A stretch of 64,000 nt of DNA. Source: Chloroflexota bacterium (GTDB taxonomy: Bacteria > Chloroflexota > Limnocylindria > Limnocylindrales > CSP1-4). Below are positions 7,835 to 43,412 of the stretch, piece by piece (the first letter of the stretch is position 1; every line of letters begins with the position of its first letter). Made by a program: the position numbers and the translations under genes. The stretch lies in the NCBI GenBank assembly GCA_021783095.1, contig JAJXUG010000001.1:119570-183569 (forward strand), given 5' to 3'. The notes under the pieces are model-generated. The model was not told where the DNA came from, did no database searches, and saw only the letters and a list, made by a program, of their open reading frames with translations.

Positions 7835-8212
7835 CGGGACCTCGGATGGGCGGGCGGGTCGTCGTGCTCACGATAGCGCGGGGCGTGGGTCAGGTTGGCA
7901 ACCTGCCGGAGTTGAGGCCGCCTGCGTCCTCTCCGGCCCAGGCCCGTTGACGCCGCAGCGCTCGGAACGGCCCAAGCGGAACTCGGACGACGGTCGAGGT
8001 CGTCGGAGGCGAGCGTCTCGCGTGCGGGACGCTCGCGTCTGCCGTCAGCCTGGAACTGCTCCCATCGCGCCATTGTGCAGGGCTCCCGCAGAAGCGTAGG
8101 ATGCGCCTGACCCGAACCAGCTCCTCGTACGGGGCTCGTCCGAGACCGCCAGCTTGTTCCGGCGGCCGGATGCATGAGCCCGCGATGCCCTGGGCGGGAT
8201 GGAGGTTCTTGC

Positions 8213-9313
<1,101 letters not shown>

Positions 9314-20062: not shown

Positions 20063-20362
20063 TCAGCTGCCGGTCCAGCCGGTGCCGGCCATCCAGGCCT
20101 TCCAGACGTCCGGGTGGGCGTCGACCCACTTCTTGGCGGCGTCGTCATCGGACATCTTGTTGGAGATGTCGGTGGCGACCGCGTTCTGGTCGTCGTTGGT
20201 CCACTTGAAGTTCTTGATGAAGGCGACGGCGGGGCTGCCGCTGTTCACGAACGTGGTGGACGCGACCTTGTTGAGGTTGTACGGCGGGTAGTCGCAGGTC
20301 ATCGACTTCGAGTTGCTGTCACAAAGGGGCGTCAGGCTCGTTGTGCAGACTGCGTTTGTCAT
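20063..20362 (-). CDS. 99-aa ORF encoding only an OpuAC-type (glycine betaine-binding SBP) internal helical segment: orphan fragment, possibly a gene remnant
   Basis: ...DYPPYNLNKVASTTFVNSGSPAVAFIKNFKWTNDDQNAVATDISNKMSDDDAAKKWVDAHPDVWKAWMAGTGW matches the OpuAC block ...AAKLLSQFKWTQDEMGEIM...[27 protein letters not shown]. Codon usage is genome-typical, and the ATG overlaps the iclR stop (ATGA). Confidence 0.5.
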   Translation of the reverse strand: MTNAVCTTSLTPLCDSNSKSMTCDYPPYNLNKVASTTFVNSGSPAVAFIKNFKWTNDDQNAVATDISNKMSDDDAAKKWVDAHPDVWKAWMAGTGWTGS

Positions 20363-21168
20363 GCCGTCCCCCTCCGGTCGCGCCAGCCGAGTCGGCGCCC
20401 GATCTCGTCGCCGGCCGCCATCACGGCCGCAGCGACGGCCTCGAACCGGTCCGGGCCCAGCCGATACGTGGGTCCCGAGACGCTCACGGCGGCCACCACG
20501 GCGCCGTCGTGGCCGCGGATGGGTGCGGCGATCGCGTTGAGCCCCACCTCGAGCTCCTCGGTCGTGGAGGCCCAGCCGGACGCCGCCGCGCGGGCCAGCT
20601 CACGCTCGAGGACCGAGCGGTTGGTGATGGTCGCCGGCGTGAAGCGCTCCAGCGGCCGTGCCAGCAGCCGGGCGCGCTCCGCGGGGTCCGCGCTGGCGAG
20701 CAGCACCTTGCCGCTCGAGGTGGCGTGGAGCGGCGTTCGCTGGCCCACCCAGTTCTGCGTGGCGACGGTGGCGCCTCCGAGCACCTGGTCCACGTTGACC
20801 ACAGCGTCGCCCTCAAGCCTGGCCACGTTCACCGTCTCCCCCACCTCGGCGGCGAGGCGCCGCGACACGGACCGGCTCTGTTCCACGAGGTCGAGCCGAC
20901 CCGCGGTGGCGCCAGCGAGCCTGACCAGCCCGAAGCCGAGCCGGTAGCGGCCGCGCTCGCTGACCTGCTCCACGAGGCCGCGAGCCTCGAGGACCGCCAG
21001 CAGCCGGTGCGCGGTGCTCTTGTGGACGCCCAGGGCCGCGGCGAGGTCGGTCACCGCCCCGTCCTCGCGCTCGGCGAGGTACTCGAGCACGTCGATGGCG
21101 CGGTCGACCGACTGGATGACGGCCGGCGACCCGATGACGGCGGCCGCCCCGCTTCGGCCCTCAGCCAT
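20359..21168 (-). CDS. IclR-family transcriptional regulator
   Basis: N-terminal wHTH (SVDRAIDVLEYLAEREDGAVTDLAAALGVHKSTAHRLLAVLEARGLV) and a C-terminal IclR effector domain (GLNAIAAPIRGHDGAVVAAVSVSGP). Confidence 0.85.
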   Translation of the reverse strand: MAEGRSGAAAVIGSPAVIQSVDRAIDVLEYLAEREDGAVTDLAAALGVHKSTAHRLLAVLEARGLVEQVSERGRYRLGFGLVRLAGATAGRLDLVEQSRSVSRRLAAEVGETVNVARLEGDAVVNVDQVLGGATVATQNWVGQRTPLHATSSGKVLLASADPAERARLLARPLERFTPATITNRSVLERELARAAASGWASTTEELEVGLNAIAAPIRGHDGAVVAAVSVSGPTYRLGPDRFEAVAAAVMAAGDEIGRRLGWRDRRGTA

Positions 21169-21550
21169 CGGTGGCTCCCGCTCCCCCGTCGACGCCGGGC
21201 GACATCGCGGCGAACGCCGCCATCAGCGCGGCGCGGGTGCCGCCGAAGGCTTCGGCTGCCTCGTCCGGGCTGGGGTCGGCCCGGCCGGCGAGATCGGGCT
21301 CGGTCCACACCCAGGTCGGGTGGTCGTGCGCCGCCAGCTGGCGGAAGCGCGGCGTCCAGACCTCCGCATCGACCGCGGCCAGGTGGACGACGATCCGGAC
21401 CGGCGTCCACCCGCCATCGTGTCCCGGCGCGGTCGCCGCGTCGCCCAGCCGGTGCACCATGGCGCCCGCCCACTCCGCCGCCTCGCGCAGCGCTGGCAGG
21501 AGGGCGGCGACCTCGGCCCTGGGACCGGGCACCGCGTCGGGCATCGTCAC
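21161..21550 (-). CDS. Small hypothetical protein (about 129 aa), weakly DinB/MDMPI-N-like, translationally wedged between the MttB-family gene and iclR
   Basis: GTG at 21550 overlaps the mttB-family stop (GTGA); an alternative ATG is at 21544. Its 3' end overlaps the iclR start by 8 nt. Coding-like codon bias, no recognisable motif. Confidence 0.4.
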   Translation of the reverse strand: MTMPDAVPGPRAEVAALLPALREAAEWAGAMVHRLGDAATAPGHDGGWTPVRIVVHLAAVDAEVWTPRFRQLAAHDHPTWVWTEPDLAGRADPSPDEAAEAFGGTRAALMAAFAAMSPGVDGGAGATDG

Positions 21551-23088
21551 TCCGCCGCGTCGGGCATCGACGCCTTGCGGCGCGCGACGAAGTCCAGCAG
21601 CGCCTCGTCCACCGCGGGGTCGATGGCCGGCGCCTCGTACTCGGCGAGCATCTTCTTCCAGACCCGGTTGGCCCGCGCCCGGGCGTCAAGCTCGCCGTCC
21701 TCGAGCCACTGCTCGTAGCTGTTGTTGTCGGCGATCTCGGAACGGTAGAACGCGGTCTCGAAGTTCGCCAGGGTGTGCGCCGTGCCCAGGAAGTGCTGCC
21801 CCGGGCCGTTCTCGCGGATGGCGTCGAGCGCCTGCCCGTTCTCGGACAGGTCCACGCCCTTGGCGAACACGCTCATCATCCCGAGCTGGTCCGCGTCCAT
21901 GACGAGCTTCTCGTAGCCGATCGTCAGGCCGCCCTCGAGCCAGCCGGCGGCGTGGAGGACGAAGTTGGTGCCGGCGAGGACCGTGGGCTGGAGCGTGGCC
22001 GCGGACTCGTAGGCCGCCTGCGCGTCCTCGATCTTCGACGCGGTCAGGCTGCCGCCGGAGCGGAACGGGACGCCGAGTCGGCGGGCGAGCGCGGCCATCG
22101 TGTACAGGACGAGCGCGGGCTCCGGGGTGCCGAACGTGGGCGCACCCGACTGCATCGACATCGAGCTCGCGAAGGAGCCGAGGATCACCGGCGCCCCGGG
22201 GCGCACCAGCTGGGCGAGCGTCATGCCTCCCAGCGCCTCGGCCAGCGTCTGCGCCGCCACGCCGGCGGAGGTCACCGGCGCCATCGCGCCGGCCAGGATG
22301 AACGGGGTGACGAGGCAGGCCTGGTTCGCCGCGGCGTAGGTGCGCAGCGAGCCCAGCATCGTGGCGTCCCAGACCAGCGGCGAGTTCGCGTTGATCAGGC
22401 TGGTGACGACCGCGTTCTGGTCGACGAAGTCCGCGCCGAACACGATCTTCGCCATCTCGACGGTGTCGGCGGCGCGCTCGGGCGCCGTGACCGAGCCCAT
22501 GAACGGCTTGTCCGAGTAGCGGATGTGGGCGTAGACCATGTCGAGGTGGCGCTTGTTGACGGCCACGTCGGTGGGCTCGCACACCGTGCCACCCGAGTGG
22601 TGCAGATGCGGCGAGGCGTAGGCGAGCTTGACGAAGTTCTCGAAGTCCTGGAGCGTCGCGTAGCGTCGGCCGCCGTCGAGGTCGCGCACGAACGGCGAGC
22701 CGTAGTTGGGCGCGAAGACCGTGTTCATCCCGCCGATCGTCACGCTGCGCTCAGGGTTCCGAGCGTGCTGCACGTAGGTGCGCGGGGCGCTCGCCTGGAC
22801 GATGGAGCGGCACAGCCCGGCCGGGAACCGGACGCGCTCGCCCTGGACATCTGCGCCGGCGCCGCGCAGCAGGCGCAGCGCCTCCGGGTCGCCGCGGAAC
22901 TCGAGGCCCACCTCCTGGAGGATCACGTCGGCGTTGTGCTCGATGAGCGAGAGGCCCTCCTCGGAGAGCACCTCGAACGGCGCCATGGTCCGGGTGAGGA
23001 ACGGGAGGCGTGCCACGGCGGCATGGGCGCGGGCCGCCTGCCGCCCGGCACGACCGCCGCTGCGGCGGTTGTGGAGATCGTCGGTCAT
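21547..23088 (-). CDS. MttB-superfamily (trimethylamine-methyltransferase-like) quaternary-amine:corrinoid methyltransferase, non-pyrrolysine type (MtgB/MtcB/MtpB-like)
   Basis: 513-aa TIM-barrel MttB family. The frame is continuous with no in-frame amber codon, so it is a non-Pyl member. ATG at 23088 lies 3 nt after a perfect AGGAGG (revcomp of ttcctcctcg at 23091-23100). The 1031-aa ORF is an over-extension. Confidence 0.85.
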   Translation of the reverse strand: MTDDLHNRRSGGRAGRQAARAHAAVARLPFLTRTMAPFEVLSEEGLSLIEHNADVILQEVGLEFRGDPEALRLLRGAGADVQGERVRFPAGLCRSIVQASAPRTYVQHARNPERSVTIGGMNTVFAPNYGSPFVRDLDGGRRYATLQDFENFVKLAYASPHLHHSGGTVCEPTDVAVNKRHLDMVYAHIRYSDKPFMGSVTAPERAADTVEMAKIVFGADFVDQNAVVTSLINANSPLVWDATMLGSLRTYAAANQACLVTPFILAGAMAPVTSAGVAAQTLAEALGGMTLAQLVRPGAPVILGSFASSMSMQSGAPTFGTPEPALVLYTMAALARRLGVPFRSGGSLTASKIEDAQAAYESAATLQPTVLAGTNFVLHAAGWLEGGLTIGYEKLVMDADQLGMMSVFAKGVDLSENGQALDAIRENGPGQHFLGTAHTLANFETAFYRSEIADNNSYEQWLEDGELDARARANRVWKKMLAEYEAPAIDPAVDEALLDFVARRKASMPDAAE

Positions 23089-25124
23089 CGTTCCTCCTCG
23101 TCGGCGGCGACGGGCTGGCGCCGCCGACGTCGTTCCGTTCGCTCGTCCCAGCCCGCGCGGCCCGCCACCGGCCGTGCCGGCAATTCGACGACTCGCGCCA
23201 GGTTCGGGTATTCGGCACTGCGGTGCGGGATCGCCAGCGCGTCGACGAAGTGCTCCTGGAATCGGGGCTCGATCGCGGTCTCGAGCTTGTGGACCTCGCG
23301 CACGACGGTCTCGATCTCGCGGCGGGCGGCGCCCGACAGCAGCGCGATGAGGGCCCCGGCGCCCGCAGCGTTGCCCACCGAGCGGACGCGCGCGAGGTCG
23401 CAGTCGGGCACCAGGCCCAGCACCATGGCATGGGTCGTGTCGATGTGGCTGCCGAAAGCGCCCGCGAGGCGGACCTCGTCCACCGCGTCCACGCCGTAGG
23501 CGTCCATCAGCAGCCGGGCGCCAGCGTAGAGGGCTGCCTTCGCGAGCTGGACGGCCCGCACGTCGCTCTGGGTGACCACGACGCACGGCTCGCCCTCGTG
23601 GAGGACATAGGCGAAGGTGCGCCCGTCGGGGATCACGCGCTGCGTGCGGGCTGCCAGCGCCCCGTCGATGATCCCGTCCGCGGTGATGACGCCCGCGAGG
23701 AACAGCTCGGCGATCACCTCGATGATCCCCGAGCCGCAGATGCCGGTGATCCCGGTGCCGGCCGTGGCCTCGGCGAAGCCGGGCTCGTCGGACCACAGCG
23801 CCGAGCCGATGACGCGGAAGCGCGGCTCGAGGGTGTCGCGGTCGATGCGGACGCGCTCGACGGCGCCGGGCGCGGCGCGCTGGCCGGACGAGATCTGCGC
23901 GCCCTCGAAGGCGGGGCCGGTGGGGCTCGAGGCGGCGAGCAGGCGGTGCCGGTTGCCCAGCACGAGCTCCGCGTTGGTCCCCACGTCCACGATGAGCGTG
24001 ACGGCCTCGGCGAGGTGCGGCTGCTCGGAGAGGATGACGCCGGCCGTGTCGGCGCCGACGTGCCCGGCGATGCAGGGCAGGACGTAGACGCGGGCCCCGG
24101 GGTGGACGCCGAGCTTGAGCTCGGCGGCGGTGGCGTGGACCGCGCGCTCCGTCGCCAGCGTGAACGGCGCCTGGCCGAGCGGCGTCGGGTCGAGGCCCAG
24201 CACGAGGTGGTGCATGATCGGGTTGCCGACCAGCGCGATCTCGAGGATCTCGTCGCGCGCCACGCCGGCCGCGATGGCCAGGCTGCCGATGAGGTCGCGC
24301 AGCGCCGTCCGGACCGCGGCGGTCATCTCGGCCGCGCCCCGCTCGTGGAGCATCGCGTACGAGACGCGGCTCATCAGGTCCTCGCCGAACCTGATCTGCG
24401 GGTTCATCACGCCGGCCGAGGCCAGCACCGACCCGTCGAGCAGGCTGGCCAGGTGGGCGGCAATCGTGGTCGACCCGATGTCCACCGCCACGCCGTACGC
24501 GCGGTCGCGGAAGCCCGGCCACGCGGCGATCAGCGTCCGCCCGTCGTGGACCGCGACCGTCACCTTGCCGCCGCCGCTCTCGACCGCGGCCTGGAGCGCG
24601 CGCGTCGCCGCGAGGTCCGCACCGAGGTCGTGGATCCCCCACTCGCGGGCCAGCGCCTCCTGCACCCGGGCGAGGTCCGAGGCCGGCGAAGCCAGGTCCG
24701 GCAGGGCGGCCTCGACGTAGTGGAGCCGGGTGACCGGGTCGAGGTCGAACGGGCGGACCTCGAGCTCCTTGCGCACCACCTGGCGGTGGACCTGGGAGCT
24801 GGCCGGCACGTCGATGACCGCGTCGCCCAGCAGCTCGGCCGTGCAGGCGAGCCGGCGCCTGGGCGCCAGGCCCTTGCGCGCCGCGTAGTCGGCCTCCACC
24901 GCGTCGGGCGCCGAGATGTGCGCCGGATCCGAGGCGATGCCGTGCTTGGGGAACGCGCCGACGCTCTGCTCCACCTGGCAGCGGCCGCAGATGCCCCGGC
25001 CGCCGCAGACCGAATCGATGTCCACGCCCAGCTTCCGGGCCGCGTCGAGCACGGTCGTGCCCGCGGGGAAGTGCCCCCGGCGGCCCGAGGGCGTGAAGAT
25101 CAGCAGGGGATCGGGCGATCCCAC
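23085..25124 (-). CDS. Corrinoid reductive activase (RACo-type: N-terminal plant-type [2Fe-2S] ferredoxin plus ASKHA ATPase/DUF4445)
   Basis: CGGRGICGRCQV...C ferredoxin cysteine pattern at the N-terminus. Large ASKHA-fold C-terminal domain with VDIGSTTIAAHL and VDVGTNAELVLG phosphate loops. Its stop overlaps the MttB start (ATGA at 23085-23088). Confidence 0.85.
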   Translation of the reverse strand: MGSPDPLLIFTPSGRRGHFPAGTTVLDAARKLGVDIDSVCGGRGICGRCQVEQSVGAFPKHGIASDPAHISAPDAVEADYAARKGLAPRRRLACTAELLGDAVIDVPASSQVHRQVVRKELEVRPFDLDPVTRLHYVEAALPDLASPASDLARVQEALAREWGIHDLGADLAATRALQAAVESGGGKVTVAVHDGRTLIAAWPGFRDRAYGVAVDIGSTTIAAHLASLLDGSVLASAGVMNPQIRFGEDLMSRVSYAMLHERGAAEMTAAVRTALRDLIGSLAIAAGVARDEILEIALVGNPIMHHLVLGLDPTPLGQAPFTLATERAVHATAAELKLGVHPGARVYVLPCIAGHVGADTAGVILSEQPHLAEAVTLIVDVGTNAELVLGNRHRLLAASSPTGPAFEGAQISSGQRAAPGAVERVRIDRDTLEPRFRVIGSALWSDEPGFAEATAGTGITGICGSGIIEVIAELFLAGVITADGIIDGALAARTQRVIPDGRTFAYVLHEGEPCVVVTQSDVRAVQLAKAALYAGARLLMDAYGVDAVDEVRLAGAFGSHIDTTHAMVLGLVPDCDLARVRSVGNAAGAGALIALLSGAARREIETVVREVHKLETAIEPRFQEHFVDALAIPHRSAEYPNLARVVELPARPVAGRAGWDERTERRRRRQPVAADEEER

Positions 25125-25139
25125 GTCGGGGCTCGGGCC

Positions 25140-26057
25140 TCAGCCGGCGGTGACCGCGGCACCCGCCCGGCGCCGGTTGACGCGCCGCTCGCGGCCGTCG
25201 GCCGCCTCGCCGGTGGGATCCCGGTTGGCGCGGATCCAGGCGGCGGCGTCGGCGTCGTTGCCGAGTAGCACGTCGGCGGCCATGATCGATTTGCGCACGT
25301 CGGGCAGCAGCGGGTTGGTGATCGCCGAGGTCAGGCCGTTGCTGATGGCCATGGCCAGGAACGCCGAGTTGACCCCCTCGCGGGCCGGCAGGCCGAAGCT
25401 GACGTTCGAGGCGCCGCAGGTGGTGTTCACCTTGAGCTCGTCGCGCAGCCGGTTGAGCAGGGCGAACACCTGGCGGCCGGCGGTGCGCATGGCGCCGATG
25501 GGCATGACCAGCGGGTCCACGATCACGTCCTCGCGCGGGATGCCGTGGTCGGCGGCGCGCTCGACGATCCGCTTGGCCACCGCGAACCGCACGTCCGGGT
25601 CGGTCGAGATGCCCGTGTCGTCGTTGGAGATGGCGACCACTGCCGCGCCGTACTTGCGGACCAGCGGCAGGACGCGCTCCATGCGCTCCTCCTCGCCGGT
25701 CACCGAGTTGACCAGCGCCTTGCCCTGGTAGACCGAGAGTCCCGCCTCGAGCGCGTCCATGACCGACGAGTCGATCGACAGCGGCAGGTCGGTCAGCGAC
25801 TGGACCAGCTTGACCGTGCGGGCGAGGATCCCGGGCTCGTCCGCGAGCGGGATGCCCGCGTTGACGTCGAGCATGTGGGCGCCGGCCTCGACCTGGGCGA
25901 TGACGTCGCGCTCGACCCGGCTGAAGTCGCCGTTGCGCATCTCCTCGCCCAGGAGCTTGCGCCCGGTGGGGTTGATCCGCTCGCCGATGACCACGAACGG
26001 GAGGTCACCGCTGATGACCACCTCGCGGGTCGCCGAGCTGATGACGGTGCGGGTCAT
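25140..26057 (-). CDS. Pterin-binding (DHPS-like TIM barrel) methyl-corrinoid:tetrahydrofolate methyltransferase (MtgA/MtqA/AcsE-like MT2)
   Basis: FVVIGERINPTG...DVNAG...LSIDS...ALVNSV...ISND pterin-binding domain pattern (PF00809-like), 305 aa. Overlaps the upstream DUF1638 gene by 4 nt. Confidence 0.8.
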   Translation of the reverse strand: MTRTVISSATREVVISGDLPFVVIGERINPTGRKLLGEEMRNGDFSRVERDVIAQVEAGAHMLDVNAGIPLADEPGILARTVKLVQSLTDLPLSIDSSVMDALEAGLSVYQGKALVNSVTGEEERMERVLPLVRKYGAAVVAISNDDTGISTDPDVRFAVAKRIVERAADHGIPREDVIVDPLVMPIGAMRTAGRQVFALLNRLRDELKVNTTCGASNVSFGLPAREGVNSAFLAMAISNGLTSAITNPLLPDVRKSIMAADVLLGNDADAAAWIRANRDPTGEAADGRERRVNRRRAGAAVTAG

Positions 26058-26902
26058 GGGGCCTCCGTGGGGACTGGCGCCGGGGATGCGGTCGGCGTGG
26101 CGGGTGGTGCGGCCGCGAAGCCGCGGCTGGCGGTGAGCGCAGCGAGGCGCGCGCGGGGGAACTCGGCTTCGATCCGCAGGGGCAGCATCGCCTTGGCCGT
26201 GCGGCGGCCCTCCTTGGCCGCCACTCCTGCCTCGGCCTGCTCGCGCCCTTCGCCCGCCTTCCTCGCGGGCCCGCCGGCCAGACGCGCCATCGCGCTGCCG
26301 AGCTCGCCGTAGCCCGTCGGCCGATGCTCGAACGCCAGCCCGAGCCGGACGGCCGCCCGGCGCGCCAACTCGAGGACTTCCGGGTCGTCATGCTGCGATA
26401 GGTAGACCACGCGCTGATAGCCCGCGAAGTACACAGGCAGCAACTCCGGGTGGCGGTCGAGCCCGAGGCCGCGGACCACGAGCGCCTCGAAGCTGCGGGC
26501 CAGGAAGTCGGTCAGGTAGAAGGTCCCGGGCTCCTCGGCCGCCAGCGCGGCGAACTCGGCGAGTCCCGTGAAGGTGGCGTAGCAGTGGGCGCCCGGCAGC
26601 CGATCAGCGCCGTGCCTGGCCAGCACCGTGTCGAGCGCACCGGCCGTGCCGCAGTCGGCGTACGCCACGAACACCCGGTCGTAGCCGTCCGCGAGCTGAG
26701 CGAGCTTCGCGTCGACCGCTGGCGCAATCTGCTCCGGGCGGTTGTGGAGCTGCGCGGGCAGGCAGCGCACGTCGACGGCCCCGGCCAGCCCGTTGCGCTC
26801 GACGAGCTCGAGCAGCTCGCGGGCGAGCGCGCCGCAGCCCACGACGAGCGTCGGGGCGAGGGCTTCGGAGGACGCCGTCGGCCGGAGCCCGCGATCGGTC
26901 AT
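26054..26902 (-). CDS. DUF1638 domain protein (accessory protein recurrently linked to corrinoid methyltransferase systems)
   Basis: Start MTDRGLRP at 26902, overlapping the corrinoid-protein stop (ATGA). C-terminal Ala/Pro-rich tail. The 528-aa ORF from 27640 runs in a different frame over the corrinoid gene and is an artefact. Confidence 0.65.
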   Translation of the reverse strand: MTDRGLRPTASSEALAPTLVVGCGALARELLELVERNGLAGAVDVRCLPAQLHNRPEQIAPAVDAKLAQLADGYDRVFVAYADCGTAGALDTVLARHGADRLPGAHCYATFTGLAEFAALAAEEPGTFYLTDFLARSFEALVVRGLGLDRHPELLPVYFAGYQRVVYLSQHDDPEVLELARRAAVRLGLAFEHRPTGYGELGSAMARLAGGPARKAGEGREQAEAGVAAKEGRRTAKAMLPLRIEAEFPRARLAALTASRGFAAAPPATPTASPAPVPTEAP

Positions 26903-27576
26903 GCGACGAACTTGCGGGCCGTTTCTGCCGCGATCGCGGCGTCGCGGCAGTAGGCGTCGGCACCGACCGCCATCGCGAACTCCTCGTTGAGCGGCGCGCC
27001 GCCCACGAGGACCACGTACTTGTCGCGGATGCCGCGGTCCTTGAGCGCCTGGATCACGACCTTCATGTACGGCATCGTGGTCGTCAGCAGCGCGGACATG
27101 CCGAGGATGTCGGCCTTGTGCTCCTCGAGCGCGGCCAGGAACTTGTCGGCGTCCGTGTTGACGCCGAGGTCGACGACGTCGAAGCCGGCGCCCTCGAGCA
27201 TCATCCCGACCAGGTTCTTGCCGATGTCGTGGATGTCCCCCTTCACGGTGCCGATGACGACCTTGCCGACCGGCTTGGCGCCCGTCTCGGCGAGCAGCGG
27301 GCGGAGCACCGCCATGCCGGCCTTCATCGCGTTGGCGGCGAGCAGCACCTCGGGGACGAACAGGATCCCGTCGCGGAAGTCGACGCCGACGATGCGCATG
27401 CCCTCGACGAGCGCCTCGGCCAGCACCTTGTCCGCGCCCCAGCCTCGCCCGAGGAGGACCTTCGTGCCCTCGACCGTCTCGGGCGCGAGCCCGTCGTAAA
27501 GGTCGTCGTGCATCTGGCTGACCAGTTCCTCGTCGCTCAGCGAGGCGAGGTCGAGTTCCTGCTCGTCGGTTCCCAT
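26899..27576 (-). CDS. Cobalamin-binding corrinoid protein (MtgC/MttC-like; B12-binding cap plus Rossmann domain)
   Basis: DxHxxG motif GDIHDIGKN with downstream SALLTTT and GGA motifs. 225 aa from MGTDEQ (27576); the 323-aa ORF is over-extended. Confidence 0.85.
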   Translation of the reverse strand: MGTDEQELDLASLSDEELVSQMHDDLYDGLAPETVEGTKVLLGRGWGADKVLAEALVEGMRIVGVDFRDGILFVPEVLLAANAMKAGMAVLRPLLAETGAKPVGKVVIGTVKGDIHDIGKNLVGMMLEGAGFDVVDLGVNTDADKFLAALEEHKADILGMSALLTTTMPYMKVVIQALKDRGIRDKYVVLVGGAPLNEEFAMAVGADAYCRDAAIAAETARKFVA

Positions 27577-27946
27577 TGGCTCCTGCCGGTGACGCTGTGT
27601 AGCGGATGGCGCAACGAGTTGCGGATTGCGCAACGGACAATAGACGAGAGCCGCGGCTCTGTCCAGACGGTATCGCGCTGCGGGCGGTCGCTGGGTGCGC
27701 GAGCCGGACGATCCGGGCGTCGGTTCGATCGCGCTGGCGTCGCCGGGATCCTCCGCATCGCGCGCCGCTCCCGATCGGATCCTCCAGATCGCCTCCGGGG
27801 GGCGCTTCGCCCCGTCGGCCAGATTGGCGGGCGCCTGCTCGTGCGTGAGCCGGCCGACGCTGGCGCCCATATCGCCTGCCGGGGGCGATTTGGCGGGATT
27901 CGCTTGGCTAAGCGCCGCCGAGAGGCGAAATGGCGGGGGCGGTGCG

Positions 27947-28010
27947 GCGCGGAGCCCGCACGCGGCGCGGAGCCCGCACGCGGCGCGGAGCCCGCACGCG
28001 GCGCGGAGCC
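27947..28010. repeat. Tandem repeat, 18-bp unit GCGCGGAGCCCGCACGCG x 3.6, inside a 470-bp intergenic region
   Basis: Three perfect head-to-tail copies at 27947-27964, 27965-27982 and 27983-28000, plus a 10-nt partial fourth copy. Read directly from the sequence. Confidence 0.7.
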
Positions 28011-28046
28011 TGGACGCCGAGCTTCGCGCCCAGGTGCGACGGGCCG

Positions 28047-28724
28047 CTAGGCGGCGGGGACGGAGTCGCCGCCTCGGTCGGCCGCCGAGAGGCGCTCCTC
28101 CGTGTACCGGTAGTGGGCGGCGACCGCGTCCGTTGCGCGCTGCGGATCCCGGGCCCCGATGGCGTCGGCGATGTGGCGGTGGACCTCGACGGGCGGAATC
28201 CAGGCGAGCGATGACCGCGTCGCCACCGCGGTCCGCATCAGCAGGACGGTCTGGGACGCCAGCTGCTCGAAGACCGCCAGGAGGCGGCCGTTGCCGGACA
28301 GCCGGCAGTAGCTGCGGTGGAACTCCATGTCGGCGTCCCAGGCTGCGGCGAGGTCGGGGCCCCGGTAGGCGTCCTCGACCACCTCGAGGGCCGCCCTGAG
28401 GTCGGTGAGCTCCTCGTCGGTGGCGTGGGAGATCGCGAGCCGCACCGCGACCTCCTCGATCGCCCGGCGGATGACGTACACCTCGTTGAGATCGGCCTCG
28501 GTCAGGCTGCTGACGAACGTCCCGCGTCGGGGAAGGTCAACTGCGAGACCCGTGCGGGCGAGCTCGGTGAGGGCGTCCCGGATAGGCCCGCGCGAGACGC
28601 CGAATCGGTCCGCGAGCTCGGTCTCGACCAGTCTCGAGCCCGCAGGAAGGCGCCCCTCGAGAATCTCGTCGCGCAGCTGGTCCGCAACTGCCTGCCAGAG
28701 TTGCTTGTGGTCGATCGTGGCCAT
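28047..28724 (-). CDS. GntR-family transcriptional regulator (FadR subfamily with FCD effector domain)
   Basis: wHTH (LVETELADRFGVSRGPIRDALTELARTGL) plus an all-helical C-terminal FCD-like domain. Divergent from the DMGO-like gene. Confidence 0.85.
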   Translation of the reverse strand: MATIDHKQLWQAVADQLRDEILEGRLPAGSRLVETELADRFGVSRGPIRDALTELARTGLAVDLPRRGTFVSSLTEADLNEVYVIRRAIEEVAVRLAISHATDEELTDLRAALEVVEDAYRGPDLAAAWDADMEFHRSYCRLSGNGRLLAVFEQLASQTVLLMRTAVATRSSLAWIPPVEVHRHIADAIGARDPQRATDAVAAHYRYTEERLSAADRGGDSVPAA

Positions 28725-28777: not shown

Positions 28778-28804
28778 ACTGTTGACAGAAAGATTGTCAA
28801 CAGT
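28778..28804. promoter_or_regulatory. Perfect 10-7-10 inverted repeat ACTGTTGACA-gaaagat-TGTCAACAGT in the gntR/dmgO divergent promoter region (candidate GntR operator; contains TTGACA)
   Basis: Exact inverted repeat in an AT-richer stretch between gntR (start 28724) and the DMGO-like gene (start 28996). Flanked by direct repeats GATTGAC/GATTGTC. Confidence 0.5.
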
Positions 28805-28995
28805 TAGCGTCCCAGCATCGCCAGTCGGCGCGACTTGCGTCCCGTCGCCTCGGCGGCGACCCGTGACAAACGGACCTTGGTTTCGATAAGCGGCTCGGAT
28901 CGTCCCCCGGCGCCTTGCCGGAGCCCCGCCGCCTCATCTCGCGCGCGCCCTACGTCGCCGTCGATCGGTGTCCACACCCAAGGAGCAAGCTCCAC

Positions 28996-31524
28996 ATGGC
29001 CACGTTCCCGTCCAGCGCCAAGGTCGTGATCATCGGCGCCGGCATCGTCGGCAACAGCATCGCCTACCACTTGGCGAAGCTGGGCTGGACGGACATCGTC
29101 CAGATCGACAAGGGCCCGCTCCCGAACCCCGGCGGCTCCACCGGCCACGCGTCGAACTTCATCTACCTGGCCGATCACAACAAGGAGATGGCGGAGCTCA
29201 CGCTCGAGTCCGCTCGCCAGTACCGCGAGTGGGACGTCTACACGACGTGCGGCGGCCTCGAGGTCGCCCGGTCGGAGACTCGTCTCGAGGAGCTCCGGCG
29301 CAAGGTGGACTCGGCGAAGAACTGGGGCATCAACGCCTACATGGTGACCCCGGCCGAGATCAAGGAGATGGTCCCGTTCATCAACGAGGAGATCCTCGTC
29401 GGCGGGTTCTTCACGCCCGAGACGGGCGTCTGCGACTCGCTCCAGTTCGGCACCCTCTGCCGCGAGAAGGCCGAGGCGATGGGCGCGCTCCAGAGCTTCG
29501 CCAACACCGAGGTCACCGCGATGGGGGTCGAGGACGGCCGCATCAGGAGCGTGACCACCACCCGCGGCACCATCGAGGCCGAGTACGTCATCATCGCGTG
29601 CGGCGTCTGGGCGCCGCTCCTCGCCGAGATGGCCGGCGCACATATCCCGCTGACCCCGGTCGTCCACCAGATGGCCGACTACGGTCCCGTGCCGCTGTTC
29701 GAGAAGTCGTCCAAGGCGATCGAGTACCCGATCGTCCGCGACATGGACGTGCTCATGTACGAGCGCCAGGACGGCATCGGCTTCGAGGTCGGCTCGTACG
29801 CCCACCGATCGATCCTCCACGACCCGGAGGAGATCCCCTCGATCGAAGAGGCGAAGCTCTCGCCCACCGAGATGCCGTTCACGCAGGAGGACTTCGACCC
29901 CCAGCTCGAGGATGCGCTCGAGCTGTTCCCCGAGATCCTCGGCGACGAGAAGGTGGGCCAGAAGTACGCGATCAACGGCCTCATCTCGCTGACCCCCGAC
30001 GGCATGCCCGTCCTGGGCGAGACGCCCGAGGTCAAGGGCCTCTGGTCCGCCTGCGCCGTGTGGGTCAAGGAGGGCCCGGCAGTCGGCAAGTCGATCGCGG
30101 AGTGGATGACCCACGGCCAGCCCGAGATCGACTGCAACCAGAGCGACATCGCCCGCTTCCATGCGCACCAGAAGACGCGTCAGCACACCAAGGCGCGCGC
30201 CGACGAGGCGTTCCCGAAGACCTACGGCATCGTCCACCCGTCCGAGCAGTACCTCTCGGACCGGCCTGTCCGCAAGACGCCGATGTACGAGTGGCAGAAG
30301 GCGCACGGCGCCGAGTTCTTCGAGGTCGCCGGCTGGGAGCGCGCGCAGTGGTACGGCTCCAACGCGCCGCTGGTCGAGAAGTACGGCATCCAGGCCCGCC
30401 CCAACGAGTGGGACGCTCGCTGGTGGTCGCCCATCATCAACGCCGAGCACCTCGCGATGCGCGAGTCGGCGGGCCTCTTCGACCTCTCGTCGTTCGTGAT
30501 CTTCGACGTCGTCGGCGCGGGTGCGCTGGACACGGTCCAGAAGGTGTGCGTCCGGCAGATGGACGTGGCCGTGGGCCGCGTGGTCTACACGCCGGTCCTC
30601 TCGGTCACGGGCGGCTTCAAGTCCGACCTCACGGTGATGCGCCTCGCCAAGGACCACTTCCGGGTGGTCACCGGCGCCGCCCACGGCATGGCCGACATGA
30701 AGTGGTTCGCCGACAACGCGGCGGACCACACCTCGGTCATCGACCTCACCACGGCGTACACGACCATCGGCCTGTGGGGCCCGAACGCCCGCAAGATCAT
30801 CCAGAAGCTGACCCGCGCGGACATGTCCAACGCGGCCTTCAAGTTCGGCACCTGCAAGACCATCGAGGTCGGCAGCCAGCTTGCCCTCGCCTCGCGCATC
30901 AGCTACGTCGGCGACCTGGGCTGGGAGCTCTACGTCCCGATGGAGCAGGGCCAGCGACTCTGGGACGAGCTCTGGGAGGCCGGGCAGGAGTTCGGCATCA
31001 CCGCCTGCGGGATCGCGGTCTACGTGGGCACGGGCCGCCTCGAGAAGGGCTTCCGCGCCTACGGCACCGAGCTCGACAACGACTACAACCCGGTCGAGGC
31101 GGACATGCTGACGCCCCGGCTCAAGGCCCAGGACTTCATCGGTCGCGCGGCCCTGGAGCAGGCCCTGGGCGAGGAGCGGGCCGCCGTCTGCTGCACGCTC
31201 ACCGTGGACGACCACACGTCGTCGCGGACCGGCGAGAAGCGCTACCCGCTGGGCCGCCAGCCGATCGTGACCCCCGACGGCGCGCCGATCACGGACAGCA
31301 AGGGCCGCCAGTCCTACGCCAACTCGGCGGGCATGGGCCCGTCCCTCGGCAAGTACCTCATCCTGAGCTACCTGCCGCCCGAGCACGCGGTCGAGGGCAC
31401 CAAGCTCGCCGTCCAGTACTTCGGCGACCTCTACCCGGTCACCGTGGCCCGCGTCGGCTCCAAGCCGCTGTTCGACCCCGAGAACGATCGCGTCCGCGGC
31501 ATCGAGCCCGCGGCGGCGGGCTGA
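28996..31524 (+). CDS. Dimethylglycine oxidase/dehydrogenase family protein (FAD-dependent oxidoreductase fused to a GcvT-like tetrahydrofolate-binding domain), paralogue 1
   Basis: N-terminal FAD fingerprint VVIIGAGIVGNSIAYHLAKLG...GGSTGHAS and a C-terminal aminomethyltransferase (GcvT) fold, 842 aa. AAGGAG is 11 nt upstream of ATG 28996. Confidence 0.9.
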   Translation: MATFPSSAKVVIIGAGIVGNSIAYHLAKLGWTDIVQIDKGPLPNPGGSTGHASNFIYLADHNKEMAELTLESARQYREWDVYTTCGGLEVARSETRLEELRRKVDSAKNWGINAYMVTPAEIKEMVPFINEEILVGGFFTPETGVCDSLQFGTLCREKAEAMGALQSFANTEVTAMGVEDGRIRSVTTTRGTIEAEYVIIACGVWAPLLAEMAGAHIPLTPVVHQMADYGPVPLFEKSSKAIEYPIVRDMDVLMYERQDGIGFEVGSYAHRSILHDPEEIPSIEEAKLSPTEMPFTQEDFDPQLEDALELFPEILGDEKVGQKYAINGLISLTPDGMPVLGETPEVKGLWSACAVWVKEGPAVGKSIAEWMTHGQPEIDCNQSDIARFHAHQKTRQHTKARADEAFPKTYGIVHPSEQYLSDRPVRKTPMYEWQKAHGAEFFEVAGWERAQWYGSNAPLVEKYGIQARPNEWDARWWSPIINAEHLAMRESAGLFDLSSFVIFDVVGAGALDTVQKVCVRQMDVAVGRVVYTPVLSVTGGFKSDLTVMRLAKDHFRVVTGAAHGMADMKWFADNAADHTSVIDLTTAYTTIGLWGPNARKIIQKLTRADMSNAAFKFGTCKTIEVGSQLALASRISYVGDLGWELYVPMEQGQRLWDELWEAGQEFGITACGIAVYVGTGRLEKGFRAYGTELDNDYNPVEADMLTPRLKAQDFIGRAALEQALGEERAAVCCTLTVDDHTSSRTGEKRYPLGRQPIVTPDGAPITDSKGRQSYANSAGMGPSLGKYLILSYLPPEHAVEGTKLAVQYFGDLYPVTVARVGSKPLFDPENDRVRGIEPAAAG

Positions 31525-31526
31525 GC

Positions 31527-32291
31527 ATGCGCGTTCTCGTCTGCGTCAAGCGCGTCCCGGCCGTCGCCGGGCGCCTCACCCTCACCGAGGACGAGCGCGC
31601 CCTCGACACCAAGTACGTGGGGTTCCAGGTGGGGCCCCACGAGGAGTGCGCGGTCGAGGAGGCCGTCCGGCTGGTCGAGGCGCACGGCGGTGAGGCCGTC
31701 GTGCTCACCCTGGGTCCGGCCGAGGCCGTCGAGCAGCTGCGCGAGGCCATGGCCATCGGCGCTGCGCGCGCGATCCACCTCGTCACCGACGGCGGCGACT
31801 GGGACGCCGAGTCCACGGCGGGCGCCATCGTCGACGCGATCGGCGAGGATGAGGCCGCGAACGGCCCGTTCGACCTCGTCCTGGTGGGCAACGAGGCCGC
31901 CGACTCCGGCGGCTACCAGGTGGGCGCCCGCATCGGGCGCGCGCTCGGCCGGCCCGTCGTGACCGGGATCAAGGCGCTGTCCGTCGCCGATGGCACCGCC
32001 CGGTGCGAGCAGGAGTCCGGCGGCGGGCGCGACGTCTACGAGGTCCGGACGCCGGCCGTGGTCGCGGTGCTCGAGGGAATCAACCTCCCGCGCTACCCGT
32101 CCGTTCCCGGGCGCATCCGCGCCAAGTCGAAGCCCGTCGCTTCATCCTCGCCCGCCCGCCCGGCGCAGCGCCTCGAGCTGCGGCGCCTGGTCGTGCCGGT
32201 CACGGAGGCCAAGCAGGCGCAGGTGCTGGGCAAGGGCGCCGCGGCGGCGCCGGCCGTGGTCGAGCTCCTGGCCAGCGTGGGGGTGCTCTAG
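31527..32291 (+). CDS. etfB: Electron transfer flavoprotein beta subunit
   Basis: MRVLVCVKRVP...L.DE......N....ALE.A..L family pattern. ATG is 2 nt after the upstream stop. Confidence 0.9.
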   Translation: MRVLVCVKRVPAVAGRLTLTEDERALDTKYVGFQVGPHEECAVEEAVRLVEAHGGEAVVLTLGPAEAVEQLREAMAIGAARAIHLVTDGGDWDAESTAGAIVDAIGEDEAANGPFDLVLVGNEAADSGGYQVGARIGRALGRPVVTGIKALSVADGTARCEQESGGGRDVYEVRTPAVVAVLEGINLPRYPSVPGRIRAKSKPVASSSPARPAQRLELRRLVVPVTEAKQAQVLGKGAAAAPAVVELLASVGVL

Positions 32292-32293
32292 CC

Positions 32294-33256
32294 ATGGCCA
32301 CCGTCCTCGTCCTCATCACCACCGCAGACGGCGCGCCCGACAAGGTGGCGCTCCAGGCCCTCGCCCTGGGCTCCCAGCTCGCGGCGGGCGGGGCCGTCCA
32401 CGCCCTCGTCCTCGGTGACGACGCCGTCGCGGCCGGGCTCGGCGCGTGGGGGGCGACCAACGTCCACCTGGCCAGGCATCCGGCACTCGACGTGCCTGCG
32501 CCCGATGCTGCGGCGCGCATCCTCGACGACCTCGCCGGTTCTCTCGGCGCGCAGTTCGTGGTGGGCCCCGGCACCGAGGAGGGCAACACGATCCTCGCCC
32601 GCAGCGCCGCCCGCGCCGGCCTGCCGTTCGCCGCCAACTGCGTCTCCGTGACAGCCGGCTCGCCGGTCGCCGTCACGCGGAGCCGGTGGGGCGGCAGCCT
32701 CCTCGAGGAGGCGGTGATCAACGCCGACCGGGCCGTCCTCACGGTCGCCGCGCACGTCATCGAGGCCGTCGAGTCCGGCGGCTCCGCGTCCGTGACACCG
32801 TTCACGCCGCAGCTTGACGACGCGGACCTCGCCGTTCGGGTGGTCGGTCGCGTCCCGGCACCGGCCGGCGGCGTGTCGCTCACCGACGCCAAGGTGGTCG
32901 TGGCCGGCGGACGCGGTGCCGGTTCCGCCGAGGGGTTCGCCCCGATCGTGGAGCTCGCCTCGCTGCTCGGGGCGGCCGTCGGCTGCTCCCGCGCGGTGAC
33001 GATCGCCGGCTGGCGCCCGCACACCGAGCAGGTCGGGCAGACCGGCACCAAGATCGCCCCCGACCTGTACATCGCGGCCGGGATCTCAGGCGCCACGCAG
33101 CACCTCGCCGGGACCAAGGGCGCCAAGAGGATCCTCGCGATCAACAAAGACCCCGAGGCGCCGATCATGACGGCGGCCGACTACGCGGTGATCGGGGACC
33201 TGGCCGAGGTCCTGCCCGCGATCAGCGCCGAGATCCGGCGCAGGCGCGGCGCCTGA
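32294..33256 (+). CDS. etfA: Electron transfer flavoprotein alpha subunit
   Basis: C-terminal FAD-binding region VVAGGRGAGS...PDLYIAAGISGATQHLAGTKGAKRILAINKDPEAPI. ATG is 2 nt after the etfB stop. Confidence 0.9.
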   Translation: MATVLVLITTADGAPDKVALQALALGSQLAAGGAVHALVLGDDAVAAGLGAWGATNVHLARHPALDVPAPDAAARILDDLAGSLGAQFVVGPGTEEGNTILARSAARAGLPFAANCVSVTAGSPVAVTRSRWGGSLLEEAVINADRAVLTVAAHVIEAVESGGSASVTPFTPQLDDADLAVRVVGRVPAPAGGVSLTDAKVVVAGGRGAGSAEGFAPIVELASLLGAAVGCSRAVTIAGWRPHTEQVGQTGTKIAPDLYIAAGISGATQHLAGTKGAKRILAINKDPEAPIMTAADYAVIGDLAEVLPAISAEIRRRRGA

Positions 33257-33451: not shown

Positions 33452-34798
33452 GTGATCCGTTCTGGGACGAAGTACCGGATCGCCAGTCTGGCCGCTGCGA
33501 CGGTGCTCTTGGTGAGCGCCTGCGGCGGGTCCAGTGGCTCGAGCCCCGCCGCCACCACCGCGGCGAGCACCGCGCCGAGCTCCGGCGCCAGCCAGGCGGC
33601 CGGGAGTAGCTCGGGCACAGCCGCCACCCAGACCATCAACATCGGAATCGACGGGCCGTTCACCGGCCCCTCAGCGCTCACGGGCACTGAGATGAAGAAT
33701 GCCGCCCAGATGGCCTTCGACGCCATCAACTGGCAGGTCGGCAACTACAAGATCAACCCGATCTACGTGGACGATCAGGCCGATCCGGCCAAGGGCACCG
33801 CCGCGCTCGAGCAGGCGATCGTGGGCCAGAAGCTGGTCGCCGGAATCCTGGACTGGAACAGCTCGGTCGCCGCGGCCGACATGGAGCTCACGGCCAAGTA
33901 CAAGGTCCCCTGGTTCTTCGGGATGGGGGCCGCCGGCGTCGTGAACCAGAAGTTCCTCTCGGACAAGGCCAAGTACGGCTACTGGACCTCCAAGGGCTGG
34001 CCGGACCCGGTCAAGCTGACGGCCGCGTACGTCGGCGCCATCAACGACGCCATCGCGGCGGGCACGTACACCCCCGCGTCCAAGACCGTGGCCATCTACG
34101 GCGAGGACACCGACTGGGGCCGCTCCTTTGGCAAGGGCCTCAAGGACGGCTTCACCGCCAGCGGCTGGACCATCGCGAGCGAGGACTACTTCGCCACCAC
34201 GCAGACCGACTTCTCGGCGCTGATGTCGCGCTACAAGAGCGCCAACGTGCCGGTGATCGCGGGCACGAGCACGGCCGCGGCCTCCATCACCGCCTTCATC
34301 AAGGCTGAGGATGATGCGGGCATCAAGGCCCTGACGGTCGCCGACGGCCTCGGCTGGTTCGGTGACTGGTACAAGATGACCGGCTCGTCCTCGGACTACG
34401 TCCTCGACTCCGTGCCGGGCTTCGCCACCGACAAGGCAAAGAAGTTCCAAGCCGACTACAAGGCCAAGTACGGCTCCGACCCGAGTGCCGCGGCCGCCGG
34501 CCTCTCGTACGACTGGACCAACTTCTTCATCAAGGTCCTGAACTCGACCATCACCGACCAGGGCTCCATCACCAGTGACACGCTGATGAAGGAGGCCCAG
34601 GACAAGCTTTGGACCGGCCAGCTGACCTACACCGACGGGATCATCATGTCGAGCTACGACTTCAACGCAGACTCGATCCCGGACCCCGTCGTGGGCAAGG
34701 GCCACTACATCTTCCCGGTCACCCAGTACCACACCGGCCAGCAGACCGTGATCTGGCCGGCTGACCAGGCCTCGGGCAAGCTCGAGACCAAGCCCTGA
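33452..34798 (+). CDS. ABC transporter substrate-binding lipoprotein, LivJ/Peripla_BP_6 (HAAT) family
   Basis: GTG start with GGAGGAG 8 nt upstream. Lipobox LLVSAC and a Ser/Ala/Thr-rich linker. Type-I periplasmic binding fold pattern (IGIDGPFTG...). Confidence 0.85.
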   Translation: MIRSGTKYRIASLAAATVLLVSACGGSSGSSPAATTAASTAPSSGASQAAGSSSGTAATQTINIGIDGPFTGPSALTGTEMKNAAQMAFDAINWQVGNYKINPIYVDDQADPAKGTAALEQAIVGQKLVAGILDWNSSVAAADMELTAKYKVPWFFGMGAAGVVNQKFLSDKAKYGYWTSKGWPDPVKLTAAYVGAINDAIAAGTYTPASKTVAIYGEDTDWGRSFGKGLKDGFTASGWTIASEDYFATTQTDFSALMSRYKSANVPVIAGTSTAAASITAFIKAEDDAGIKALTVADGLGWFGDWYKMTGSSSDYVLDSVPGFATDKAKKFQADYKAKYGSDPSAAAAGLSYDWTNFFIKVLNSTITDQGSITSDTLMKEAQDKLWTGQLTYTDGIIMSSYDFNADSIPDPVVGKGHYIFPVTQYHTGQQTVIWPADQASGKLETKP

Positions 34799-34864
34799 CG
34801 CCATCCGAGCAACAAGTGGGGGCCGGCATCGCGCCGGCCCCCACTGCACCTAGAGCGAGGCCCC

Positions 34865-35593: not shown

Positions 35594-35621
35594 GCGGCCA
35601 GGGAGGCTCCAGGGAGACATC

Positions 35622-36326: not shown

Positions 36327-36335
36327 GGCAGACCG

Positions 36336-38422: not shown

Positions 38423-38473
38423 CCACCGGGCCGAGCCGGCCAGCAGGCCGGTGTGAACGGAGGGCACCGCGCC

Positions 38474-43333: not shown

Positions 43334-43412
43334 CGTGACTCCGTGGCAATTCTGGCGCAAGATCGGCTGCTTCCGCCGAGCGCCTCGCGGGGATTCTGCG
43401 CCGTCGGCCGTG

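Follow-up and report, generated by a model that had tools for sequence, protein, structure and literature searches.

Described systems for corrinoid-dependent betaine demethylation

The mtgC-DUF1638-mtgD-ramA-mtgB operon is found in a 64,000-nucleotide stretch of bacterial DNA (GenBank assembly GCA_021783095.1, contig JAJXUG010000001.1, positions 119,570 to 183,569; hereafter the window, with positions counted from its first letter) and constitutes a complete corrinoid-dependent methyl-transfer module of the MttB family. Judged by its proteins, the module is probably (a probability of about 0.78) the orthologue of the aerobic cobalamin-dependent glycine betaine:tetrahydrofolate (THF) methyltransferase system of Ruegeria and Sinorhizobium. 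An aerobic pathway of this type had been published in 2025, and the functional idea put forward here matches that system. In Ruegeria pomeroyi, the MtgB candidates, MtgC, MtgD, RamA and the DUF1638 protein are induced on betaine, choline and carnitine, and in knock-outs of mtgC and mtgD glycine betaine is neither consumed nor able to support growth (Mausz et al., PNAS 2025, PMC12478193). In many aerobes, the mtg genes are co-located with genes of dimethylglycine and sarcosine metabolism; mtgE is usually not co-located, even where a dual role exists (PMC12478193). The Sinorhizobium meliloti cluster has been assigned to aerobic MtgBCDE (PMC12478193). The genome table in the supplement of that study contains zero Actino- or Chloroflexi entries, and 5% of marine mtgC reads were assigned to Actinomycetota (PMC12478193). 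A prediction made from the DNA letters of the window (the original prediction) had stated that characterised systems of this type come from strict anaerobes. That premise is outdated, given that the aerobe R. pomeroyi needs MtgC and MtgD for glycine betaine (PMC12478193); it is superseded because the system of Mausz et al. 2025 is aerobic and, in all probability, orthologous to the window module.

The MtgABC system of Desulfitobacterium hafniense follows the same logic, in which the methyl group passes from betaine to a corrinoid protein and then to THF. The betaine site of its MtgB was defined from mutants and from a structure with betaine bound (Picking et al., JBC 2026, PMC13080624). Cation-pi contacts come from Y97 and F356, whereas the carboxylate is held by R312 and H348; this four-residue motif was termed the likely minimum for betaine use (PMC13080624). 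R312 and, partly, H348 are common to MtcB, MtpB, MthB and MtyB; the aromatic pair is not (PMC13080624). As in the window, the first methyltransferase (MT1) of D. hafniense is a non-pyrrolysine member of the MttB superfamily with Leu at the pyrrolysine position, and Y97, R312 and H348 are shared. In contrast to D. hafniense MtgB, the window protein has Gly for F356 and an invariant Trp in the sequence GWLEGG. The second methyltransferase (MT2) of the window is Pterin_bind/MeTr-like, with no chain named MtgA among its PDB matches at E<=1e-10; D. hafniense lives strictly anaerobically, and DUF1638 is not part of MtgABC as published.

Further systems were compared with the window module. Eubacterium limosum MtpB, MtcB, MtyB and MthB, together with MtqC and MtqA, likewise comprise non-pyrrolysine MT1 enzymes, a corrinoid protein and a THF methyltransferase. 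Compared by published description, these MttB-family enzymes keep R312 and partly H348, but they have other substrates, lack the aromatic pair and belong to an anaerobic acetogen. Methanosarcina MttB/MttC/RamA (7xcl, 7xcn) has the same MT1 superfamily fold, a homologous corrinoid protein (126 bits) and a RamA-type activase; unlike the window module, it is pyrrolysine-dependent, with trimethylamine as the substrate and coenzyme M as the acceptor. The split MetH of Phaeobacter inhibens (Price et al., PLoS Genet 2018, PMC5764234) likewise consists of separate corrinoid, pterin-binding, RamA-like ferredoxin/DUF4445 and DUF1638 proteins. DUF1638 and RamA co-occur phylogenetically, and no proposal for the function of DUF1638 was offered (PMC5764234). 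The P. inhibens system was defined by methionine auxotrophy and has a homocysteine-binding subunit, whereas the window has mttB in the operon and no homocysteine-binding gene. The Rieske monooxygenase GbcAB and BHMT perform the same step, glycine betaine to dimethylglycine, in aerobes; their families and chemistry are unrelated to those of the window module.

The five-gene operon and its likeness to the aerobic system

The five genes and their domains, as given in the original prediction, were confirmed by Pfam, and translation showed all five open reading frames (ORFs) to be free of internal stops and located on the minus strand at the predicted coordinates (Table 1). The predicted 4-nt overlaps are present at three of the four junctions (mtgC/DUF1638, DUF1638/mtgD and ramA/mtgB, each ATGA); mtgD and ramA do not overlap and are separated by a 15-nt gap. 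Downstream of mtgB, the overlaps carry on through a 129-aa ORF, the gene of an IclR regulator and an OpuAC remnant of 99 aa. Six further assemblies of this population, with genes called independently, have the same five genes.

Among plasmid records searched by tblastn, MttB-family genes of 67% identity were found in Sinorhizobium. The S. meliloti pSymB locus comprises, within 12 kb, genes for an ASKHA-domain protein, a methyl-THF cobalamin methyltransferase, MTHFR, DUF1638, a cobalamin-binding protein, an MttB-family protein, bmt (MtgE) and a glycine betaine/proline ABC transporter. The window proteins are 76% (MtgC), 50% (DUF1638), 62% (MtgD), 58% (RamA) and 67% (MtgB) identical to their S. 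meliloti counterparts. The R. pomeroyi/S. meliloti system contains the same five families, including a pterin-binding MetH-like MT2, with RamA and DUF1638 as accessories, and the window module is co-located with dimethylglycine/sarcosine genes, as in other aerobes of Mausz et al. 2025. The differences concern organisation and host. One translationally coupled operon holds all five genes in the window, whereas they are scattered in R. pomeroyi; unlike the Ruegeria/Sinorhizobium system, the window has no mtgE or metF2 nearby and has GntR and IclR regulators; and the host phylum, Chloroflexota (Limnocylindria), lies outside the genome survey of Mausz et al. 2025.

MtgB

MtgB matches the profile PF06253 (MTTB) with a score of 766 bits, the model being covered over its full length; this places the protein in the superfamily originally proposed for it, as the B12-binding domains found in the 26899-27576 product do for the corrinoid protein. 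The gene has 513 codons with zero in-frame stops and zero TAG, in agreement with the original prediction, and the pyrrolysine position of Methanosarcina barkeri MttB aligns with Leu348. The score against TIGR02369, the equivalog model of the pyrrolysine-type trimethylamine methyltransferase, is 269 bits with a cutoff of 525. By these sequence features, MtgB is a non-pyrrolysine enzyme. Comparisons of MtgB were made by identity to PDB entries and to the S. meliloti cluster. The closest solved structure is PDB 4yyc, a ‘putative trimethylamine methyltransferase’ (66% identity), followed by D. hafniense MtgB (2qne; betaine-bound 9yce) with 45% identity and 425 bits; the pyrrolysine-containing MttB 7xcl gives 106 bits only. 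The window MtgB is thus much nearer to D. hafniense MtgB than to 7xcl, or than to the second MttB paralogues of related loci (see below).

The residues of the betaine site were mapped using a constant +2 offset between the paper numbering and the chain index, with which all four residue types agree. Y129, R343 and H379 of the window protein correspond to Y97, R312 and H348 of D. hafniense MtgB; the carboxylate-binding pair is represented by R343 and H379. Y129, R343, H379, W383, G386 and G387 are invariant in 81/81 homologues from four phyla, S. meliloti included. The 4yyc-like MtgB clade has a signature of its own, an invariant HAAGWLEGG at residues 379–387 (81/81), with Trp located four residues past His. 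W383 may serve as a second aromatic face in place of F356. The clade-specific Trp-for-Phe signature is modestly new.

Corrinoid protein, MT2, activase and DUF1638 protein

MtgC, a stand-alone corrinoid protein, combines a cap domain with a Rossmann B12 domain; its DxHxxG motif, of the His-on type (DIHDIG, residues 114–119), is followed by SAL at 161 and GG at 192. The best NCBIfam model is the glycine-betaine corrinoid protein MtgC_2, which it matches with 204.6 bits, under the 370-bit cutoff; the nearest PDB entry is 1y80. MtgD is a pterin-binding methyl-THF:corrinoid methyltransferase resembling a MetH module. It exceeds the 259-bit cutoff of NCBIfam NF005719 (methyl-THF:corrinoid methyltransferase domain) with 353 bits, and in the PDB it comes nearest to MeTr 2yck and to the MetH folate domain. 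In its N-terminal part, the activase has the four Cys (C40, C46, C49 and C94) that make up a [2Fe-2S] site of the plant type. The protein gives 291 bits against RACo PDB 3zyy and remains under the NCBIfam cutoffs of the AcsV and RamA subfamily models; as far as these profiles tell, it is a member of the RACo/RamA family and not an AcsV or methanogen-RamA equivalog. In the DUF1638 protein, the domain comprises residues 47–202 and is followed by a variable Ala/Pro-rich tail. The domain has an invariant set, Cys3/His2/Asp2; this conserved Cys/His set is modestly new.

The MetH-folate-domain likeness of MtgD raises the question of methionine synthesis. MtgC, MtgD, RamA and DUF1638 are needed for it in P. 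inhibens and R. pomeroyi, and the module could primarily be a split cobalamin-dependent methionine synthase of the P. inhibens type, which would move the methyl group of methyl-THF to homocysteine via a separately encoded MtgE, with MttB as an auxiliary methyl donor. Such a primary role is improbable. The 64-kb window has no S-methyl_trans (MtgE) gene, the family is not among the 25 commonest neighbour families of 13 related loci, mttB is translationally coupled to ramA within the operon, and the neighbours, DMGDH (dimethylglycine dehydrogenase), ETF (electron-transfer flavoprotein) and BetA, are catabolic. A secondary role in methionine synthesis may exist, since mtgE is usually not co-located even with a dual role (PMC12478193).

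Choline and betaine island

The genes around the operon (Table 1) bear out the choline/betaine oxidation island of the original prediction, with BetA, DAO-GCV_T proteins and ETF. Support for glycine betaine as the substrate comes from BetA, which exceeds the equivalog cutoff, and from the four DAO-GCV_T enzymes and ETF in the window. All four DAO-FAO_M-GCV_T paralogues are under the NCBIfam equivalog cutoffs, and their number suggests several N-methyl substrates beyond dimethylglycine and sarcosine. The island yields glycine betaine from choline and uses up products of the dimethylglycine type; the step from betaine to dimethylglycine is otherwise without a candidate there, neither GbcAB nor BHMT having been found in the window. 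The first demethylation of glycine betaine, as originally proposed, is the most plausible role of the module in this choline-to-glycine island. No gene for MtgE (S-methyl_trans), MTHFR, FolD or formate–THF ligase is present among the gene-like ORFs of the 64-kb window. The DMGDH operon, divergent from gntR, comprises the first DAO-FAO_M-GCV_T gene, the ETF genes, the LivK-type transporter and the DAO-family dehydrogenase. The LivK-type transporter located downstream of the ETF genes was not found beside the cassette in the other species examined.

Table 1. Features of the operon and its surroundings (window positions; GC3, G+C content at third codon positions)
Feature	Position	Strand	Basis
mtgC, corrinoid (cobalamin-binding) protein, 225 aa	26899-27576	-	Pfam B12-binding_2 + B12-binding
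DUF1638 protein, 282 aa	26054-26902	-	Pfam DUF1638
mtgD, pterin-binding methylcobalamin:THF methyltransferase (MT2), 305 aa	25140-26057	-	Pfam Pterin_bind
ramA, RACo-type activase (ATP-dependent reduction of corrinoid proteins), 679 aa, start codon GTG	23085-25124	-	Fer2 + RACo_linker + Raco_middle + RACo_C_ter
mtgB, non-pyrrolysine MttB-superfamily methyltransferase (MT1), 513 aa, putative substrate glycine betaine	21547-23088	-	PF06253
Promoter-like TGGACA-17-TATTGT and two adjacent 18-nt operator-like repeats, upstream of mtgC; putative function	27599-27665	-	Consensus matches
129-aa ORF overlapping the mtgB stop, membership of the system doubtful	21161-21550	-	Coding-like GC3; weak DinB_2 match
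IclR-family regulator overlapping the 129-aa ORF	20359-21168	-	HTH_IclR + IclR_C
99-aa C-terminal remnant of an OpuAC betaine-binding protein	20063-20362	-	OpuAC profile positions 198-256 only
GntR/FCD regulator, upstream of the module in the same orientation and divergent to the DMGDH operon	28047-28724	-	GntR + FCD
Perfect 10-nt palindrome ACTGTTGACA-n7-TGTCAACAGT, divergent gntR/DMGDH intergenic region	28778-28804		Candidate GntR-family operator
Dimethylglycine/sarcosine-dehydrogenase-like flavoprotein, DAO-FAO_M-GCV_T	28915-31524	+	Pfam; start 28996 in other gene callers
ETF beta	31527-32291	+	ETF
ETF alpha	32294-33256	+	ETF, ETF_alpha
LivK-type ABC transporter (Peripla_BP_6 binding protein, two ATPases, two permeases)	33452-38422	+	Pfam
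FAD-dependent DAO-family amine/amino-acid dehydrogenase	38453-39712	+	D-amino-acid-dehydrogenase-like, under NCBIfam cutoff
DAO-FAO_M-GCV_T paralogues (three)	40817-43360, 43413-45827, 45876-48365	-	Pfam
BetI-like TetR regulator	48595-49200	-	TetR_N + TetR_C_6; BetI equivalog under cutoff
Aldehyde dehydrogenase, betaine-aldehyde dehydrogenase (BADH) by context only	50484-51932	-	Aldedh; BADH models under cutoffs
betA, choline dehydrogenase	51962-53668	-	TIGR01810 814 bits (cutoff 732), NF002550 850 (cutoff 605)

Distribution of the cassette

A scan of a genome collection found relatives encoded at no fewer than 593 species-level loci (at least 593). The cassette was surveyed in the best 80 of these, which have 67–82% identity and comprise 36 loci of Actinomycetota, 14 of Chloroflexota, 27 of Pseudomonadota and 3 labelled Acidobacteriota; the gene order was read by tblastn of the window proteins onto the loci. 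Nearly every locus of Chloroflexota and Actinomycetota that has sufficient flanking sequence shows the order mtgC-DUF1638-mtgD-ramA-mtgB; a permuted order, mtgB-mtgC-DUF1638-mtgD-ramA, occurs in Inquilinus and Halioglobus. The same cassette is present in 30/36 actinobacterial loci examined, and in 20/36 DMGDH-ETF and/or BetA is located within 10 kb of it; the actinobacterial loci include Acidimicrobiia, Ilumatobacteraceae, Gaiellales and Nitriliruptoraceae. Homologues of the DAO-FAO_M-GCV_T protein 28915–31524 (50–59% identity) adjoin the cassette in Actinomycetota and Acidobacteriota, and an IclR gene stands beside it at most loci of Chloroflexota and Actinomycetota, as a rule on the upstream side and in divergent orientation. 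The organisation is a common one, the same cassette being present in dozens of species-level genomes of four phyla.

A Pfam census of neighbours covered 83 ORFs from 13 loci of three phyla. It is led by DAO, ETF, GCV_T, GMC oxidoreductase, ABC transporters, formate–THF ligase, IclR, OpuAC and MTHFR, and therefore fits a role leading from betaine through methyl-THF to one-carbon oxidation. The 129-aa ORF downstream of mtgB was considered as a conserved sixth component and rejected, as it has no significant family match and is not kept beside the cassette elsewhere: it gave no NCBIfam match and is absent beside the cassette in all 80 other species. This ORF is kept in near-identical strains only.

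Two loci of related Chloroflexota and Gaiellales (L017 and L061) contain a second, very divergent MttB paralogue less than 10 kb from the cassette, with 25–26% identity to the window MtgB. These paralogues hint that one set of MtgC, MtgD and RamA might serve more than one methyl donor.

Surveys of metagenome-assembled genomes (MAGs) list the mttB/mtgB genes of Candidatus Limnocylindria, and also non-pyrrolysine mttB expression in oxic peat, under ‘anaerobic methylotrophy’; among the papers accessible to a literature search, none was found that details the cassette in Limnocylindria or Actinomycetota. The listing would suit a module of anaerobic methylotrophy that a facultative organism uses under anoxia only, as would the oxygen sensitivity of Co(I) chemistry and the origin of the first characterised systems from anaerobes. 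This is nevertheless the least probable of the readings considered, and very improbable in itself. Gene for gene, the module is orthologous to a system working in aerobically grown R. pomeroyi; the operon is flanked by ETF-linked and GMC-type oxidoreductases, a cytochrome c assembly gene is present in the window, no Wood–Ljungdahl or coenzyme M methyltransferase genes are found nearby, and transcripts of non-pyrrolysine mttB have been reported from oxic palsa soil (peat). Close orthologues of the whole cassette also occur in cultured Alphaproteobacteria of the genus Inquilinus, which are aerobes. Operation of the betaine:THF module under oxic conditions appears the more natural assumption.

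Host lineage and strain variation

The original prediction had taken the host to be an actinobacterium, presumably because of the high G+C content (about 72% in the window). This assignment does not hold. The closest homologues of MttB (97% identity downward) are named Candidatus Limnocylindrales or Chloroflexi CSP1-4, Candidatus Limnocylindrales entries are present in the ≥90% clusters both of the corrinoid protein and of a prolyl oligopeptidase encoded 20 kb off, and the best loci in the genome-collection scan are Limnocylindrales/Chloroflexota MAGs. An actinobacterial host is ruled out by the homologue names and the genome scan; on the same evidence, the host is identified as a soil Candidatus Limnocylindrales (Chloroflexota) bacterium.

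In a sister MAG (GCA_027325005.1, locus L002), an intact OpuA-type transporter, with ATPase, permease and a 372-aa OpuAC protein, is located between iclR and the next gene. In the window, a 4184-bp deletion, corresponding to L002 12765–16949, has removed the OpuA ATPase, the permease and most of OpuAC, so that the 99-aa OpuAC tail is all that is left. The deletion junction is at about 20323, with the 7-bp microhomology CGACAGC, and the deletion is also found in three other assemblies. The presence of an OpuA-type transporter beside the module in the sister MAG is an additional pointer to glycine betaine. The strain-level loss of an adjacent betaine transporter is modestly new.

Two large minus-strand ORFs elsewhere in the window, 11644–13887 (possibly to 14406; about 750–870 aa) and 14256–16370 (704 aa), have coding-like GC3 and zero Pfam matches; both are also called as genes on other assemblies (871 and 704 aa).

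Candidate regulatory elements

The two 18-nt repeats upstream of mtgC, CGTTGCGCAATCCGCAAC and CGTTGCGCCATCCGCTAC, are each half-palindromic and are located between the -10 element and the start codon. The perfect palindrome in the gntR/DMGDH intergenic region (Table 1) occurs once in the window, where 0.04 chance matches would be expected; further copies were sought in the window and none found, and no regulon can be defined from it. Between gntR and mtgC lies an 18-nt tandem repeat, GCTCCGCGCCGCGTGCGG (27944–28033), of variable copy number, with three full copies in the window and in one other assembly (L003) and one copy in five other assemblies of the locus. Regulation of the module by the GntR and IclR proteins is something that we infer.

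A cobalamin riboswitch or another RNA upstream of the operon was also considered. A scan of the whole window with Rfam gathering scores found no cobalamin riboswitch and gave only malK-III, so that the idea was abandoned. The malK-III RNA (8113–8215, plus strand, 75.5 bits), the only match over the gathering score, overlaps the beginning of the gene for a MalK-like ABC ATPase (8174–9313).

Substrate and physiological role

Glycine betaine is the likely substrate of MtgB, mainly on the basis of context and of orthology to the Ruegeria/Sinorhizobium system. Several points weigh against this assignment and against the preferred reading as a whole. In the window MtgB, the F356 position is occupied by G387 (HAAGWLEGGL vs HTAGILQYFM), so the cation-pi aromatic pair Y97 + F356 is incomplete, Y129 being kept and F356 being replaced. 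The 45% identity to D. hafniense MtgB is no proof of specificity, because MtcB and MtyB are 53% identical and yet differ in their preferred substrates. The knock-outs in R. pomeroyi concern mtgC and mtgD only, and its MtgB candidates rest on proteomics (PMC12478193). The strain of the window no longer has the OpuA transporter next to the module, and the window contains no MTHFR, FolD or formate–THF ligase for methyl-THF oxidation; because of this, the oxidation would be carried out by enzymes encoded elsewhere. Finally, the oxygen physiology of the host is likewise something that we infer.

The same machinery might act on another quaternary amine (proline betaine, carnitine, gamma-butyrobetaine, choline/phosphocholine or other betaine), in which case the demethylation of glycine betaine would be left to an enzyme encoded elsewhere, such as GbcAB or BHMT. 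The replacement of F356 by Gly departs from the likely-minimum four-residue betaine motif (JBC 2026) and agrees with such a substrate, and R312 and H348 do not discriminate between substrates, because they are also conserved, H348 less so, in MtcB, MtpB, MthB and MtyB. Y97, however, is not conserved in the non-betaine enzymes and is invariant here, together with the Trp four residues past His. The four DAO-GCV_T paralogues, which suggest several N-methyl substrates, and the OpuAC-type transporters, which carry proline betaine too, could accommodate another amine; the island nevertheless makes glycine betaine and consumes dimethylglycine-type products, with only the step between them missing, and the orthologous systems of S. 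meliloti and R. pomeroyi are tied to growth on glycine betaine. Another amine is therefore an unlikely substrate, if less so than methionine synthesis is an unlikely primary role, and glycine betaine remains the preferred one. The caution in the original prediction that the substrate is not readable from sequence alone was fair, as one of the four betaine-binding residues is not conserved.

Proposed mechanism and significance

In the proposed mechanism, MtgB would bind glycine betaine in its TIM-barrel pocket and methylate the Co(I) corrinoid on MtgC, freeing dimethylglycine. MtgD would then transfer the methyl group from CH3-Co(III)-MtgC to THF, restoring Co(I); the methyl flow would thus run from betaine to THF. 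Oxidation of Co(I) to inactive Co(II), presumably frequent in an oxic cell, would be reversed by the [2Fe-2S]/ASKHA protein RamA, which would re-reduce the cobalt at the cost of ATP. The DUF1638 protein, which is genetically linked to the other components, would have an accessory role. The ETF-linked DAO-GCV_T flavoproteins encoded next to the operon would remove the further methyl groups of dimethylglycine, giving sarcosine and glycine, and choline dehydrogenase and aldehyde dehydrogenase would feed choline into the pathway as glycine betaine.

A broader proposal concerns the Terrabacteria (Limnocylindria, Acidimicrobiia and Gaiellales), and is possible, if rather doubtful. The compact operon would serve catabolism alone, as a glycine betaine demethylase with no link to methionine synthesis, and would be the main route by which betaine and choline are turned over aerobically in soil and fresh water, with a cobalamin-dependent flux. 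Its MtgB clade would have a different cation-pi arrangement, with the Trp of GWLEGG for F356, and DUF1638 would act as a metal-dependent RamA partner, keeping the corrinoid in its reduced state in cells exposed to oxygen.

The finding in itself is incremental; the extension of the system to Limnocylindria and many Terrabacteria is modestly new. It poses two questions sharply, namely whether the invariant Trp is the replacement for F356 and what role the Cys/His-rich DUF1638 protein has. It also corrects a common habit of MAG annotation, in which such mttB genes are read as markers of trimethylamine use or ‘anaerobic methylotrophy’. Aerobic B12-dependent betaine demethylation is extended from marine Proteobacteria to MAGs of Limnocylindria, many of them from soil-MAG collections, and the cassette survey extends this route to many Actinomycetota and Acidobacteriota MAGs. 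Choline and betaine turnover in soil and freshwater may hinge on the supply of cobalamin.

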